A stretch of 64,000 bases of DNA from Balamuthia mandrillaris (lineage: Eukaryota). The notes under the pieces were generated by a model. It searched no databases. It was not told where the DNA came from and saw only the letters and a program-made list of their open reading frames with translations. The translations under genes and the position numbers were made by a program. Within the stretch, counting starts at the first letter, position 1, and the number at the start of each line of letters is the position of its first letter. The stretch spans positions 1 through 64,000 of the forward strand of contig JAVKOQ020000084.1 of the NCBI GenBank assembly GCA_031835245.2. The letters run 5' to 3'. Positions 1 through 33,538 of this stretch are shown here, piece after piece.

Positions 1-706
1 CTTTGAAGAAAGCATCAATAAAGTTGTTCTCAGGGCGGTAATAAACATCGCCACCAGCTCCAACGAACCCCAGCTCCTTAAACATGACTTCATTCAACAT
101 GATCAACTTCTTCGCCGCATCCTCCATTTTGCTATCTCGCTCGCTCGGCCCTTCTTCCTGCTCCAAGGACGAAACAGAGGAATAAGCACGCAAGTCATGC
201 GTCTGCTGTTCCAGTCGTTCTCACCCTTTCAGCGATTTCATCCAACTGACGATGAACTCGAGAGCGATCGATGGAACGTTTGTGAGAGCTTGTATCCAAC
301 ACTTCACATCTACCATAAATCTTTCTCCGTTTAGATTAATCTTTGGTGAGGTTGACAATGATGTAGAAGAGGCAGTTGGTGTAGAGGACAAACAGGACAG
401 CAAAAAGGTTAGTGAAGAGGTTGCTGAAGAGGGCCATGAAGAGGTTTGCAAAGAGCTTGGCAAAGAGGTCGACGAAGAGGTTGGTGAAGAGGTCATCAAA
501 GAACTTGATGATAAGAGCCATGAAGAAGTCAGCAAGGAGGTTGGCACGAAGGATGGCGAAGAGGTCGGCAAGGAGGTCGGCAAAGAGGTTGGCACGAAGG
601 ATGGCGAAGAGGTCGGCAAGGAGGTCGGCAAGGAGGTCGGCAAGAAGACTATCTTGCTAGTAGCAAGGAGATCAGCAGATGTGTAAGCAAGGGCTGAAGA
701 GAACAA
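1..706 (-). pseudogene. SirB1/FBXO21-like transglutaminase-fold protein with Ser/Thr/Pro-rich N-terminus, interrupted by an in-frame TGA; runs off the window start
   Basis: ORF 221..706 ends ...WMKSLKG-TGA(221-223), but the same frame continues ERLEQQTHDLRAY...AAKKLIMLNEVMFKELGFVGAGGDVYYRPENNFIDAFFK to position 1. This matches the LNxVLFxELGFxGxxxxYYxPENSF pattern of the Transglut_core2 (SirB1/FBXO21) family. The true start is uncertain. Confidence 0.6.
410..645. repeat. Degenerate 12-bp tandem repeat (GAGGTCGGCAAG-like) with a near-exact 48-bp higher-order duplication
   Basis: GAGGTTGGCACGAAGGATGGCGAAGAGGTCGGCAAGGAGGTCGGCAA occurs twice in tandem (~538-632); on the minus strand it encodes PTSLPTSLPTSSPSFV repeats. 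Confidence 0.85.
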
Positions 707-792
707 GGTGTGGAGGTGCCTTGGGTCTGGCGTGCAACCAACTTAGCTCGCTTCTTCTTTGCGTAGTAGCGTTGGTTTCGCTCCTGTCGAAG

Positions 793-954
793 CCGCTTTT
801 TTCGCAGAGCCTTTGCTGCTTCCTTCGATTCTTCTTCTTTTTCTTTCTCACGATTTACTTTTTTTCGAGCTTGATACCGCCGTTGAGCCTCAGCAGCCCT
901 CTTCCGTCGAATTCCCTTCGCCTCTTGCAGGCGCTTTACCTCTGCTTTCTTATC

Positions 955-1001
<47 letters not shown>

Positions 1002-1264
1002 CTTTCGAAGGTAGTACTCTCGGTTGTAGGCTTTGCGGTCTGTAAAGGTTAAGGCAGACAAAAAAAACTTTCAGCCAGCAGCAGGGAAATCCACAGCGTC
1101 TCTGCCTTAAGGGGGCTTCTGGTGTTGAAGCTGATTTTAGCAGAGGAAGAGGGCTGCTGAGGCTCAACGGCGGTATCAAGCTCGAAAAAAAGTAGAACGT
1201 GCGAAAGAAAAAGAAGAAGAATCAATCGAAGAAAGCAGCAGCAGAGGCTCTGCGAAAAAAGCGG
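793..1264. repeat. Long inverted repeat (arms ~793-905 and ~1145-1264) around a (CT)n-containing spacer
   Basis: 856-905 is the exact reverse complement of 1145-1194 (50 bp); similarity continues outward with a few mismatches and indels. Confidence 0.9.
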
Positions 1265-1583
1265 ACCAGAAGAAGCGGTTAGCAGCGTACATCACGGACC
1301 CGAGCAGCAACGTTCCCTTTCTTGCGTACCAGCAAAACGAAGAAGCTTAGTGAGCTGGGATGGTGCAGAGACTGAGCAACTCAACTCGGGTTTTTTTGTA
1401 TGCATCTTGATATTATGGGATAATAAGCCCCCTTACATATAATGACGACATGATATTCCACGTCAGCGTCCCCCAAAACGATCTATTGCTGGGGTGGGTG
1501 ATATCTAGGAGGCACAAACAACCCGGGTGTTAAAAAAAAAAGCGCTTGTTGGGTTGCCTGTTTTCCCGCTACTACCCCCATCC

Positions 1584-2729
1584 ATGGAGTCTGGGTCAGG
1601 CCATGAGCTGAAACTCTTGAGTGAAGATAACGAGGAGCTTTTTTCCAGAGATCTGGTCGAAAAGGCTTCCAAACTCTCTGTGCGGAAAGGGAAGCGAAAA
1701 GAAATTCACACAGTTAAAATAAAAGAGGGGCAGGTAGTTGTGTATCCTTCACAAGGAACTCCTTTCAGGCTCAACGCCGCAAGCGCCACCGTGGGAGAGG
1801 TATACACTGCCCTAAAAGAAACCTTTCCTCGGCATATAAGAAACCTTTTTCCCGAGGAAGTTGGTGAGTGTCTTCCCTACACTTGAAAAAATAGTCACCA
1901 ATTATTTTCGACTTACAACATCGTTCTCTCGACGCAATAGGGCAAAAATCAGTCCAGGAACAGCTCCAGAGGGAGAAGGAGCTGCGTTTATTGGCAGAAA
2001 ACGAGCTCCAGAGGGAAAAGGAGCTGCGATTATTGGCAGAAAAAGAGCTCCAGAGTGAGCGGCAACTTAGAAAGCTATCCTCCCTCAGCGCCGCCAGCTA
2101 TGCCTCAGTAGGAGCGCAAGTCTGTCGTGGCCAAGAAGACCCAACTGAAATAATCACCAACTATATTGAACCGGTGGACACTACAACACTCCAATCCCTG
2201 TGGGTGCGTGTCTTTAACGAAATACCCATCCCCGAGGCTGGTGGTGGGGAGCCACAACTTCAACACTTCATGGACCAAATGGTGCGGCTAATTACACACC
2301 AAGGGCCACTAAAAGAGTTCAACAACAGGTACCTAGCAGGTGTCATTTTTCAGATAGCGTTTATACACTACTGACCATTATAATACCAAAACTACAGCTA
2401 CATTCTCCCGTTAAGACCTGACATTTCCTTGGTTTCATCCACTGACAACTGTGTTCAGTGGAACAACCTGGTGATGACAGGCGAGATTGAAACGAATTTG
2501 CAGGAGAAGCTGAACCACGGACTTGGGCAAGCGGTTACCTATGGTTCGCGCGCATTGTTGGCCCAGACAGCTCGGCAATTTATTTTTTGTATTCTGACTT
2601 CTGTAGACGAAATCATGTTCGTCAGGATAACGAGGGAAGAGAAGATGATCGCAAGGACAAACAAAATGCCACTCTTCCCCTTAGTACATTCTTTACCTTT
2701 CTCCTTCATCCTCATTCATATTAACGATT

Positions 2730-2773
<44 letters not shown>

Positions 2774-3784
2774 CTCTTTACACAGGGATCTTCCAGGCCC
2801 ACCTTTCCGACTGAAGGCTTCGAAATACTAGTTCGCCTGCTGCGGTCCAAGCCTGATAAGCACGGTTATCAATTGCCAAGTTTTCCTGAGACGCTTGTGG
2901 TGGGCGAGCATTGTCTTGACCTGAACTCCCTTTTGGGCCTCTCAACGAGCCTAGTCTACAAGGCGACAATGGAAAGCGGAACGGTAGTGGCTGTCAAGTG
3001 CACTCCGCAAGGAAATGGGCAGTTCCAATCCGAACTGCAAGCGTTGCAGAAGCTGAAGGGCATAGAAGGCGTCCCCTCCCTTATAGGGTATGGAGCTTGC
3101 TTGGGCCTAAATTACGATGCGTTGATAATGGCCCCCTGTGGACTCCCTTTACTACAAATGATCCAATCTGGTGACGGGTTCCTTCCTTGTGAACAAGCTT
3201 ATATCTTCGCCGTGCAAGTGTTGGGTGTCCTTGAGGAAGCTCATCAGCGTGGGGTGATGCACGGAGACATTCGTCCTCACAACCTTGTTTTAGCCAACGA
3301 ACGGATGATATTAGTGGACTGGGGACTTGCTCTTCTGAGTGAAGATGTGGCGGAAATTATCGTTCGGGGCTCTGGTCACTTTTCCCCAACCGGACTGCTT
3401 TTGGCGGAAGAGGAGCAACGAGCCTACACCTACACCATGCATGATGACTTGGAAAGCCTGGCTTACACTATTGCCTGGATGATGAACGGCATGCTCCCAT
3501 GGCAGTCTTCTTCATGCACCACCCGAAAAGCCCTGCTAAAGAGCAGAGACTCCTTCCAGTTCCCAAATGCTGTGCAATGCTTCCTTGACGAGATTCGTTC
3601 CCTTCGAGGCGTGAGTTTGACCAGCGAACACTATGATCGCTTGCGTGGGTGTTTCGCAGATGAGAAACAAGAAGAAGCCTGCGAGGCCATTCTCAGTTCT
3701 GGAAGGCGCAAAGGAAAAAAGTGTGGAAGGGTGCGTTGCCATTATCACACTACTAAGCCAACGGCAATCGAGTGTCATGCTTAG
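1584..3784 (+). CDS. Crinkler (CR)-like protein: N-terminal domain, coiled-coil repeat, PD-(D/E)xK REase-like domain, atypical (FunK1/CR-type) protein kinase and C-terminal Cys/His motif; 4 exons
   Basis: Introns 1864-1940, 2329-2397 and 2684-2785 (all GT-AG) join the ORF pieces in frame. REase-like motifs: RPDISL...GEIE...GQAVTY...FCILTS. Kinase motifs: VAVK, HGDIRPHN, DWG, DDLESLAY. C-terminal CEAILSSGRRKGKKCGRVRCHYH. Confidence 0.75.
1958..2054 (+). repeat. 42-bp tandem coding repeat encoding LQREKELRLLAE(N/K)E coiled coil (~2.3 copies)
   Basis: AGCTCCAGAGGGAGAAGGAGCTGCGTTTATTGGCAGAAAACG is followed by a near-identical copy and a partial third copy. Confidence 0.85.
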
Positions 3785-29986: not shown

Positions 29987-30711
29987 GTGAAAACAACTGC
30001 AGGAACAAACCAAACAGGAAAAGTTGGCAGCACCACGTAACGAGGCAGTGGCTCCTGTGAAGATAATTGTGCCTCGTTTCTGTTCAAGCATGTGAGGCAG
30101 TACCTGTTGCGCCGCCAGGAAACCTCCGAAACAATTGCTCTTCCAACATTGCTTTTCATGCCCGGTAACAAAGAGACCAAAAAGTGAGGGGAAAGAGAGA
30201 GGGGAAACAAAGGTAGGATGGAATAGAGAGAAGAAGAGAAGAGAGGGGAAGGAAGGAACGTGAGACACCAGAGAGGAAAGGATGGCAAGTTTGGGTGAGT
30301 TACCTCAAAAGTTTCTGGAGTTATATCCAGAATGCCTCCTCTTTTGTAGGCACCGGCGTTGTAGATCATGACCTCGGGGTGTCCCAGCCTCTCCACCACC
30401 GTCTTGAAGCTCTGCTCCATGGCCTGAGGGTCGGTTGCGTTGGTGGGCACGCACAGCAGGGATTCTCTTGGCAGCCCTCCTCTTTGGCTGATGCTGTCGG
30501 CAACAGCCTCCAGCTTTTCCTTGGAACGAGCAAGCAGCGCCACCGAGAAGCCTTGTTTCGCAAATCTTTGTTTTTCACCGCAAGGAAGAGGCTCAGGGAA
30601 AGGAACAAGAACAACCAACTTGAAACTCGGGCCTTACCTCTGCGCTGCAGCACGACCAAGACCAGGACCCACGCCCACAACAACGCACACACGAGAAAGG
30701 GTTTGCTCCAT
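29489..30711 (-). CDS. Short-chain dehydrogenase/reductase of the bacterial-like subgroup lacking the canonical YxxxK; multi-exon
   Basis: VVVGVGPGLGRAAA, YNAG, TIIFTGATASLRG, LSVGKMGLRSLAQSMAREYGPKGVHVAHVIIDG, WTHELDLRPYSEKF-stop (29489-29491). Introns are GT-AG. Confidence 0.9.
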
Positions 30712-30944
30712 GTTCGTTTGTTTGTTCGTTCGTTGTTTGAGTAATTATGCCCTCTCGCTCTTCTCTCTCGTTCTCTCTCACTTGGTTGTCTCAACCACCA
30801 GGAGGAGGCTGGGGGTGAGACACATGCCGCACTACTCCATCGGCAAAAAAAAAAAACATGCAAGGCGGTTTCTTTTTCGAAGGGATGTCCCCCCGATGCA
30901 ACCTGACGTCATCCCTTCGGAGAAAAAAACAAAAAATCCTCCGA

Positions 30945-31999
30945 GGAGAGAGAAGGAAGACGGAAGACGGAGGAGAGTGAAGGACAGCAGAGCGCGACTG
31001 ACTAACTTTGATTTGATTTTGATTTTCCTACTTTATCTTTCCCCTGTCTAATTTGATCACTCCGACTTGCGTGGGCGGTGCCGAGAAGGTATGAACGTTG
31101 GCGTTAACCCTTCCCCTCCCTTTTATGGGGGCACTCGCCCATGTAAATCTTACGAGTGCCGTGGGAACACCCAACCACGTCAATCCGAAGGGTGCCCTCG
31201 ACTTTTGTGGGTAAAGTTGAGTGTATGGGTAGCTCCAAGCACGCCCCCCACCATCCCATACGAAAAATCACGAAAAACCCCCTCACACAAAACTGCAAAT
31301 CTTGAATCTCTCGCATCTAATTCTTTGAATATAAATACTTATGCTAACACAAACACAAATATAAGCCCAAACACACAAGCAAACAAACGCACAAAAACAA
31401 AAACCAACAAAACGAACCATCCTTATTTCCTCCTTGTTGGCACAACAAGTGAAAAACCTAGACTTTTGGAAAGGAGAACTCCCCTACTATCTAACGGTAC
31501 ACGGCACCAAAAACAAAGATATCAATAGCATCACCCACATTATCGACAGCACCAGGACCAATATTTTCCTCAAGCGAAATGAGAAACTCAAAAAACTGCA
31601 TTTCCTCGACGACTCGTAACAAAACCGAGCGGCCTTCCCGAAAAAGCCCACAGGAGGTTAGACCTCCTAAAACCTGCCAGCCCGGTCAGGTGCCAGCGGA
31701 CTGCCAGCGGAATCCGTGCCTGGATGACACATCTGCCTTTGCACCTCCAATGGAAGCCAACCTATCTACCACACCATCCCAACTTCAAAACTTGGAACAA
31801 GCGATCTCTCACACCCACCACACCCTCCCAACTTCAAAACGTGTAACAGGCGATCTCTAGCAACCTATGTGCCTCCCAACGCACTCTGCCCGATGGGCAT
31901 TGACGCCAGTAAGCGGTGCCGTAGGTATTCTACCTACGAGGTTGAGCGGCCCCGCCCACTAGATAGCCAATAAACTATTTCCAAAAAAAAAAAAAAAAA
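30945..31999 (+). mobile_element. Non-autonomous, internally deleted non-LTR retrotransposon (LINE) derivative: structured 5' region, ORF2-like C-terminal remnant, 3' UTR, poly(A)
   Basis: Bounded by AAAAAATCCTCCGA (30931-30944) and A17-CCTCCGA (31983-32006). Ends with AATAAA and an A17 tail. The remnant ORF ...HIIDSTRTNIFLKRNEKLKKLHFLDDS-stop (31619) resembles the IWxxRN motif at LINE ORF2 C-termini (by eye). No RT motifs are present. Confidence 0.65.
31768..31859 (+). repeat. ~49-nt tandem duplication in the retroelement 3' UTR
   Basis: ACCACACCATCCCAACTTCAAAACTTGGAACAAGCGATCTCT versus ACCACACCCTCCCAACTTCAAAACGTGTAACAGGCGATCTCT. Confidence 0.85.
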
Positions 32000-32006
32000 C
32001 CTCCGA

Positions 32007-32331
32007 GGGGCCCACCCCCATGGCCGAGTGGTCTACCATTTGGTCATAGCCTGCCAGAAAGGGGAAGGCCGCGTGTTCGACTCCAAGGAGCCGCACTTAG
32101 TGGTCGACGAAAAATTTCAACAAGCCTGGCCTTGGCCTCACCCGGCGAGCCAAGAAAAATACTCTGCCGAGAACATGGTGGCGATTTCTAGCAACCTTTG
32201 TGTCTCCCAAAGTGCTCTGTCCACTGCGGCAGTGGGACAAGTAAGAGGTGCCGTTTGTATGTATGTACCTACGAGGTTGAGCGGTTTCAACCCACTAGAT
32301 AGCCAATAAACAATTCCTTAAAAAAAAAAAA
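32007..32331 (+). mobile_element. tRNA-derived SINE (~325 bp) whose 3' tail is homologous to the adjacent LINE derivative
   Basis: Pol III A-box TGGCCGAGTGG (32021-32031) and B-box GTTCGACTCC (32075-32084). The tail 32180-32319 aligns with 31849-31982. Ends AATAAA plus A12. Flanked by AAAA(T)CCTCCGA on both sides (to 32006 and 32339). Confidence 0.8.
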
Positions 32332-32646
32332 TCCTCCGACCCCAAAGAAGGCGTGACGAGAGGTCACGTCGACATTTTTTACGAATGAGGGTTCCTCCCC
32401 CGGTGCGAATAGGCAGGATTTGGCCTTGCTTTCCTTTGAAAGGCAAAAGAAAAAAGCCAAAGGAAAAAGCAAGAGCAAAAAAAAAAAAAAAAGCGTAGCG
32501 CGCGGTGGGGGTTTTTTTTTTGTTTTGTTGCAGAGGAGAAGAAAGAGAGAGAGAGAAGCCAACGTCTGTTTTTCTATTTATTTTTAGATTTTGGAGTAGT
32601 GGTTGTGGTGGTGGGTGGTATCAAAAAAAAAAAAACAAAACAAAGA

Positions 32647-33538
32647 ATGGCGTCCGTGGACTATGACTACCTCTTTAAAATCCTGTTGATTGGCGACTCG
32701 GGCGTGGGCAAGTCGGCGCTGCTGCTGCGTTTTGCGGACGACGACTACTCGGACACGTTTATCAGCACCATTGGGGTGGACTTTAAGATCAGAACCATTG
32801 AGCTGGACGGCAAAGTGGTGAAGCTTCAGGTGTGGGACACAGCCGGTCAGGAGAAGTTCAAGTATGTTGTCGTTTTTTTATTATTCTTGTTTGGAATTTG
32901 TTGCTCCTTCTCTCTTGTTTTTCCCCTTTTCATTGTCGTATCGTTTCGATTTGTTGTTTGTTCTTTCTGTTGGTTTGATGTTAGCCCTTGCATGATTTTT
33001 TTTTTTGTTGTTTTTTTCTCTTTTTTTCCTCCAAACAACCAACCCAATCTAATCATCATACGTATCGATCGACAAATCAAAAAAAAAAAAAAACAGAACC
33101 ATCACAAGCAGCTACTACAGAGGCGCACACGGCATCATCATAGCCTATGACGTGACGGACGAGGCCTCCTTTAGCCACGTCAAGACCTGGATCGGGGAGA
33201 TTGAGAAGTATGCCAGCGACAACGTGACCAAGCTGCTGGTCGGCACCAAGTGCGACCTGGAGACCAAGCGAGTGGTGGAGGAGAAGCGCGGTCGGGCCCT
33301 CGCCGAGGAGCTCGGCATGAACTTTGTGGAGACCTCGGCCAAGGCCAACACCAACGTGGAGAAGGCCTTTGAGACCATGGCCCGCGAGATCAAGAAGACC
33401 ATGAAGCCAAACAACGGGGCGGGAGCCGGAGCGGGATCTGGGGCTGGAGCGGGATCTGGTGCGGGACGAGGGACCGGTGGACGGGGCGTTGATCTTTCTG
33501 GAAGCACAGCAGTGGAAGAGGGTGGTTGTGCTTGCTAA
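32647..33538 (+). CDS. RAB1: Rab1-family small GTPase; one intron (32862-33096)
   Basis: [67 protein letters not shown]-terminal CAC prenylation motif. Confidence 0.92.

Follow-up and report, generated by a model that had tools for sequence, protein, structure and literature searches.

Tandem of a Deleted LINE Derivative and a SINE-Type Element Framed by Likely Copies of One Host Site in Balamuthia mandrillaris

Two A-tailed elements with a common 3′ end lie in tandem at one intergenic site of Balamuthia mandrillaris, and the three motif copies that frame them are likely a duplicated host site, not a sequence that the element family seeks. The upstream element (E1) is a non-autonomous LINE derivative that has lost an internal part, and the downstream element (E2) is a SINE-type element with A and B boxes and an E1-like tail. 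Within the 64-kb window, by which we mean the whole stretch of DNA that was analysed, the motif AAAAWCCTCCGA occurs exactly three times, always on the plus strand (30933-30944, 31995-32006 and 32328-32339), against an average of 0.03 occurrences in 100 dinucleotide shuffles, none of which (0/100) reached three. The motifs frame E1 at 30945-31999 (1055 bp) and E2 at 32007-32331 (325 bp), and both elements carry AATAAA just ahead of the A tail. The exact pattern count thus bears out the preliminary description, in which a thrice-repeated motif bracketed two A-tailed elements of about 1055 and 325 bp. The left copy (30931..30944, plus strand) reads A6-T-CCTCCGA and is likely a 14-bp outer target-site duplication. 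The middle copy (32000..32006, plus strand) is CCTCCGA without the T and stands directly behind the A17 tail of E1. The right copy (32326..32339, plus strand) is again A6-T-CCTCCGA and merges into the A tail of E2, reading in full A12-T-CCTCCGA (32320-32339).

The tandem is flanked by two genes that point away from it, an SDR-like one with its ATG at 30711 (minus strand) and a Rab1-like one with its ATG at 32647 (plus strand), both named by eye. The insertion site is about 220 bp from the SDR-like start and 308 bp from the Rab1-like start. The depth of the flanks is that of single-copy sequence per haplotype, and no Rfam family was found at the target site, so that the target lies outside any known multicopy gene. 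No further copies of E1 or E2 were observed within the window. A 10-bp perfect inverted repeat at 30879-30919, with TGACGTCA in its spacer, lies 12 bp ahead of the target site (fold z of -3.0), and a small hairpin (32350-32370) behind the right motif is followed by a T6 run, a possible terminator of polymerase III transcripts. Elsewhere in the window, a repeat-rich ORF and a kinase-like ORF at 186-3784 have few introns, unlike the neighbouring genes, and are possibly an expanded or mobile gene family.

Public contigs of four sequencing runs (X1, X6, X8 and X11) were compared with the window, to which a fifth run, the raw RNA run X19, contributed 0 reads; the region is partly present in 17 runs of eight studies. 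The earlier reading of E1 (30945..31999, plus strand, including an A17 tail) as a deleted LINE derivative held up, on the strength of a coding remnant at 98% identity and of contigs at the deletion junction. The element begins with a variable GA-rich head (30945..30988, plus strand); other copies diverge before 30989, and some have 6 extra bases at 30988. The next segment (30989..31419, plus strand) probably corresponds to the 5′ part of the parent LINE (UTR and/or ORF1 start); Pfam gave no hit there, and the 23 listed substitutions show no codon-position bias. A GC-rich stretch of this part (31065-31265) is predicted to be structured (z of -2.3 on the plus and -2.5 on the minus strand), matches no Rfam family and could be a promoter, a ribozyme or a translation element. 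At the internal deletion junction (31419..31420, plus strand), loose ends from X1, X6 and X11 carry other sequence on one side or the other: the sequence behind 31419 differs in X6 and X11 contigs, and the sequence before 31420 differs in four X1 contigs, where it encodes, by eye, the start of P0008. One X8 contig (31059-31971) bridges the junction under a 31-letter rule, and contigs of X1 (depth 549) and X6 span it with a shorter side of 30 letters, one fewer than that rule asks. The deleted form of E1, with both ends kept, is itself multi-copy.

Behind the junction, E1 holds the last 66 codons and the stop of the parent ORF2 (31420..31619, plus strand), and then a 3′ UTR (31620..31982, plus strand) that contains a 49-bp tandem duplication (31768-31865), the tail shared with E2 from 31849 onward and AATAAA at 31969. 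The two halves of the duplication are 86% alike, and one X11 contig is without 41 bases of it. Seven bases at 31642 are absent from the window's E1 and present in the main X1, X6 and X8 contigs and in one X11 contig, so that this copy has either lost them or been misassembled. Rfam gave no support for a ribozyme at the 5′ or the 3′ end of E1.

The reading frame of 31420-31619 is 98% identical over 66 residues to the C-termini of Balamuthia mandrillaris hypothetical proteins (P0001/P0003). P0003 has a CxxC..E..H zinc-finger-like stretch with an RNase H-like end upstream of it (motifs read by eye), and its ORF ends about 80 aa behind CxxC..E..H. Its look-alikes by protein features include a eukaryotic cluster (score 0.94) with RNase H in 79% and zf-RVT in 16% of the members, a match of 167 shared features that falls just below the guide value of 170. 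P0003 overlaps P0011 at 89% over 66 residues. P0011 resembles Pfam RNase_H below the cut-off (E = 0.0015), and the predicted structure of its first 189 residues can be aligned to RVT_1 with a TM of 0.49, at a score that meets the Atlas naming bar; its feature matches under 0.9 serve as leads only. P0002, with a locus tag adjacent to that of P0011 and on a contig of equal length, translates on through an E1-type 3′ UTR. Given this overlap chain from the E1 remnant through P0003 to P0011, together with their domain matches, the parent ORF2 likely runs in the order RT, RNase H, zinc finger and short tail.

Eight proteins of this kind lie on seven contigs of one named assembly. Three further proteins (P0006, P0007 and P0009), found among the eight hits of one protein search, are repetitive and were dismissed as chance. 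P0005, P0008 and P0010 come from separate loci and share the same starting methionine, nine codons before the window's deletion point; fragments of the LINE family are annotated as hypothetical host genes in these NCBI proteins. The preliminary description had called for a full-length element encoding RT and endonuclease. No full-length ORF2 or endonuclease was found among 821 candidates of 376-2000 aa in a search with P0001, a result that counts as weak evidence. Behind the zinc finger of P0003, neither inspection by eye nor Pfam gave a restriction-like endonuclease motif. Single-sequence AlphaFold models of P0003 and P0011 have a mean pLDDT of 39, and PDB sequence searches returned weak matches only (an RNase H chain, E = 0.016). 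Relatives of P0003 in metagenome contigs (69 pattern matches) and of P0011 in viral contigs (15 pattern matches) were not found, with 0 matches confirmed in either set.

E2 (32007..32331, plus strand) spans 325 bp including an A12 tail, and its other copies start at 32007/32008. Its head carries a putative polymerase III type-2 promoter (32021..32083, plus strand), with an A box at 32021-32031 placed 54 bases ahead of a B box at 32075-32083; this is the sole A and B pair among 10 B-box matches in the window. The boxes were identified with consensus patterns. ARAGORN at its default threshold and Rfam both called no tRNA in E2, so that a tRNA origin of the head is putative. ARAGORN calls an E2 tRNA only at a threshold of 70%, and 80% already yields 120 noise calls in the window. 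Of the earlier label "tRNA-SINE", the SINE-type nature with A and B boxes is retained, and the tRNA part, which is suggested by the promoter boxes only, stays putative.

The preliminary description missed that the two elements are related at their 3′ ends. E1 at 31849-32006 and E2 at 32180-32339 are 78.5% identical over 163 columns (E = 1e-30), giving a common 3′ end of about 150 nt. In E2, the putative LINE-derived tail (32180..32319, plus strand) is 78.5% like the E1 tail and is predicted to adopt a common multi-hairpin fold. Covariation in the shared tail amounts to three compensatory pairs of 37 (60/500 shuffles), which is not significant with two sequences. Tail patterns had no match in metagenome contigs or viral contigs. 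E2 is a multi-copy, dispersed element with a LINE-related 3′ end and an A tail.

Runs X6 and X8 were treated as RNA because the SDR-like gene appears in spliced form and the spacer flanks have no depth. Their depth was dismissed as a measure of copy number in view of this RNA-like behaviour, and copy estimates come from X1 and X11 only. The deleted form of E1 and E2 are both present in these RNA-like libraries, which carry no information on level, start or strand. In the DNA run X1, which may be the window's own source, the depth is 549-695 for E1 contigs and 479 for E2, compared with 37 and 46.5 for the two flank haplotypes; the E1 and E2 contigs thus stand at 11-17 fold one flank haplotype, although contig depth is a poor copy count. 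The depth relative to the flanks shows that E1 and E2 are multi-copy and not single-copy, in agreement with the earlier proposal. The family is diverged and scarcer in the DNA run X11, where E1 stands at about 5x and each of two E2 heads at about one. Over the last 60 bases (32261-32324), the summed depth in X1 reaches 2650, or about 60 haplotype equivalents, with several different upstream loose ends. The depth of these last bases and the variety of the loose ends suggest that further LINE/SINE families, or truncated copies, share this end. In X1, two haplotypes at the SDR-like gene start (30600-30900) differ by 15 substitutions in about 150 bases, which indicates that the sample is strongly heterozygous or mixed.

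Alleles without the tandem were also observed. Joints that skip both elements run from 30929 to 32395 in X1 and from 30929 to 32414 in X11, ending 55 and 74 bases past the right motif, with the intervening letters not read. The empty allele anticipated earlier is therefore supported in that two DNA runs skip both elements, and a clean empty site with one motif was not read. Furthermore, an X11 contig aligns over 32320-32440, that is, over the A-run, the motif and the right flank, without E2. CCTCCGA was considered as a part of the element ends and was ruled out by this contig, in which the motif is present and E2 is not; the motif is therefore part of the host site. An allele with one element only was not seen among the three element-free contigs, which are few enough to miss one.

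If the family sought this sequence, its copies elsewhere would be expected to share it, and the preliminary description proposed just such a strict specificity for AAAATCCTCCGA. The exact re-use of one site, for which the chance expectation is low, speaks for that proposal. Of 33 loose-end rows, 15 were listed; seven of these mark element ends and show letters of the flank, and the other eight are internal divergence points or bare A tails. The sample is thus a small one, weighted towards diverged copies or related subfamilies, and a second table has a further 42 rows outside those listed. Among the rows listed, CCTCCGA is present in 0/4 readable 3′-flank rows, which represent five contigs (X6 at 32328, two X1 contigs at 32308, X1 at 32313 and X11 at 32309) and differ from one another, and in 0/2 readable 5′ flanks of E2, both from single X6 contigs. 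The X11 5′-flank row is a mixture of two contigs with about 8 of 30 letters alike (agreement 0.63); since the two are unlike each other, at least one of them is without CCTCCGA. The mixed consensus before 32007 may nevertheless hide a motif-like flank in one of these contigs, and the listed flanks come without the youngest X1 copies. Three E1 5′ loose ends at 30989 are rich in purines and stop short of where the motif would lie. In X1 and X6, the deep E2 contigs end at 32008 without entering the motif, which argues against strict specificity, although this stop is a blank without a positive control, as the window's own junction is also unseen. The target site has no Rfam hit, and behind the P0003 zinc finger no restriction-like endonuclease motif was seen by eye. 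Strict specificity is therefore regarded as very unlikely: an endonuclease specific for AAAATCCTCCGA is unsupported, and the flanks of copies elsewhere proved unrelated, albeit in a small sample, which is an outcome that the preliminary description itself had named as refuting. The different neighbours of the other copies suggest that the motif is likely not sought by the family. A looser preference may still exist, either for A-runs or like that of ingi. The two X6 5′ flanks show a TT/AA step 12 and 18 bases ahead of the element, a weak observation made by eye and post hoc. L1-type nicking would leave such a step.

Target-primed reverse transcription duplicates its target, so that an insertion re-creates the site on both sides. 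We give slightly better than even credence to an account in which both elements were inserted, probably sequentially, at one A-rich host site by an enzyme with a loose preference, the site acting as a local hot spot. A full-length LINE with RT, RNase H, a zinc finger and a presumed endonuclease would supply the enzyme in trans. This enzyme would recognise the tail common to E1 and E2 plus poly(A), nick the T-run that faces the A-run on the bottom strand, and begin reverse transcription there. E2 would have arrived before E1 and left a 14-bp duplication, of which the left copy then received E1; this second step would have made a 7-bp duplication or been followed by loss of the T. The E2-first order is favoured because the left and right copies keep the T, whereas an E1-first order needs the T to be regained. 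For R1, insertion into the 5′ duplicate has been proposed (PMC2718515). The preliminary description had likewise supposed two successive insertions by a sequence-preferring endonuclease; the succession is the part that we tentatively keep, and a preference for the motif is not supported by the unrelated flanks.

The Balamuthia draft genome is given as 44.2 Mb (PMC4665321), and the density of A5+ runs in the window would then translate into about 283,000 such runs. With 15x12 to 60x60 copies, 0.001-0.025 pairs in the same A-run are expected by chance. Since chance re-use is unlikely, a hot spot must be assumed, and the A-rich spacer between two divergent promoters would play this role. Sequential re-use with a loose preference is weakened by the fact that published tandems stem from strictly or relatively site-specific elements, and by the count of single-element alleles, which is 0/3 in element-free contigs.

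Both the low chance of re-use and the 0 single-element alleles would fit a single coupled event, to which we assign a clearly smaller, though not negligible, probability. The E2 RNA would be copied from the nick, followed by a jump to the 3′ end of the upstream target strand, the copying of seven bases and a switch to the E1 poly(A). At the end of such an event, which we consider rather doubtful, RT would finish on the same upstream strand end, so that both elements enter through one nick pair. This explains why both 5′ junctions are on the same base without a second hit, and it explains the absence of the T from the middle copy. Template jumps of R2 to tRNA and U12 RNA have been described in vivo (PMC3414825). 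Conversely, two jumps with a target copy between them are needed, and no paper showing that path was found; in experiments cited by PMC3820030, human tandems arose from independent insertions; and three element-free contigs are too small a set for the lack of a single-element allele to be taken as secure.

The assembly itself could also have produced the tandem, as a join or a recombinant of two single-element alleles. The middle motif copy as placed in the window was seen in 0 of the runs analysed, the depth at 31989-32004 is zero in 4/4 runs, and neither of the window's E2 junctions as assembled was seen in any of them. The lack of seven bases at 31642 in the window's E1 and the missing T at a long A-run point the same way. 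However, depth holes at repeats prove nothing, as rows were dropped there. Moreover, a join still needs two insertions at one site, and a single-element allele was seen in none. A join or recombinant is considered highly improbable.

Alternatively, the second insertion might have been guided by the SINE. The LINE would home just upstream of A/B-box units, and an inserted SINE would act as a tRNA-gene mimic for E1. The E1 end lies 7 bp ahead of E2 and about 14 bp ahead of the tRNA-like body. The parent has RNase H behind RT, as described for NLTR-A/B, and NLTR-A of Dictyostelium purpureum is reported to insert 2-6 bp upstream of tRNA genes (PMC5006619); Balamuthia and D. purpureum are both amoebozoan. 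Against this, the 64-kb window holds no tRNA gene, so that the first insertion here was not tRNA-guided, and the four readable 3′-flank rows, at 30 letters each, look by eye unlike tRNA or SINE starts. Polymerase III-guided targeting is accordingly judged unlikely, and sequential insertion at an A-rich hot spot is kept as the preferred account.

The arrangement has close parallels among described retroposons. Trypanosome ingi/RIME, L1Tc/NARTc and Tvingi/TvSIDER1 likewise combine RT followed by RNase H, poly(A) and short non-autonomous partners, and different partners occur in tandem with only the target duplication between them (PMC3820030, PMC12278014). Tandems split only by the target duplication are reported for ingi/RIME and R1 (PMC3820030, PMC2718515), and the same arrangement is described for R1 arrays and their SIDEs (PMC2718515, PMC3414825). 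Unlike the trypanosome pairs, E1 and E2 have a common 3′ end and no common 5′ signature, E2 has polymerase III boxes, and the duplication is 14 or 7 bp, whereas theirs is fixed at 12. Amplified internal-deletion copies with both ends kept, as in E1, are found in Drosophila R1/R2 SIDEs and in Dictyostelium TRE5-A.2 (PMC3414825, PMC3159450). R1 and R2/R1 SIDE tandems are split by a 14-bp duplication, as here (PMC3414825), and TRE5-A.2 is an amoebozoan deleted LINE that is moved in trans and needs a structured 3′ module (PMC3159450). R1/R2 are described as strictly 28S-specific and TRE5 as tRNA-gene-targeted, whereas the E1 and E2 copies have unrelated flanks and the tandem lies in a unique spacer without a tRNA gene. 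Unlike R2, R1, Tx1 and Utopia, the copies in the small, biased flank sample have no target in common, and the site here belongs to no multicopy gene or repeat known to Rfam; unlike R2, NeSL and Utopia, no restriction-like endonuclease was recognised behind the C-terminal zinc knuckle (by eye, and with no Pfam hit).

With its A/B-box head, unrelated middle, LINE 3′ end, predicted hairpins and A tail, E2 resembles the "stringent" SINE/LINE pairs of a 2013 survey, although, unlike tRNA-type SINEs, its head no longer scores as tRNA (PMC3747384, as far as seen). In the table of that survey, the amoebozoan pairs are those of Entamoeba only, with unknown promoter and R4-type partners, and only three SINEs with L1-clade tails are counted. 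The Entamoeba LINE/SINE pairs are said to insert near T-rich stretches with no specific sequence (PMC3118788). Among amoebozoan non-LTR elements, dictyostelid NLTR-A/NLTR-B also carry RNase H behind RT, a likeness drawn by description only, and their insertion sites lie a fixed distance upstream of tRNA genes (PMC5006619). RNase H is otherwise known from the I group, plant L1, Proto1 and Dualen (PMC4640811).

The sections seen of the Balamuthia draft-genome paper mention only a Ty3/gypsy-type element and recombinase-like ORFs, and no description of this LINE/SINE family was found in the Balamuthia literature (Repbase, subscription journals and supplements being outside the scope). Apparently, the human-pathogenic amoeba thus harbours an undescribed, recently mobile trio of LINE, deleted LINE and SINE, of a kind that is already known. 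The design of an A/B-box SINE with a LINE tail is listed for no amoebozoan in the 2013 table (PMC3747384, in the part seen). Alleles vary in whether they carry the elements at this site, and samples vary in copy depth, so that such insertions could be used to mark strains; the high-copy tail common to E1 and E2 could be a sensitive detection target. The tandem is no evidence for a new sequence-specific endonuclease. It would carry greater weight if the re-use of the site were polymerase III-guided or a single two-RNA event. There is a small chance that an RT-RNase H LINE homes to the bases immediately ahead of polymerase III units, so that its own SINE becomes a mobile landing pad for it and SINE-seeded stacks are built. 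If true, this would extend tRNA-gene-type targeting beyond the dictyostelids and direct it at a parasite of the element itself.
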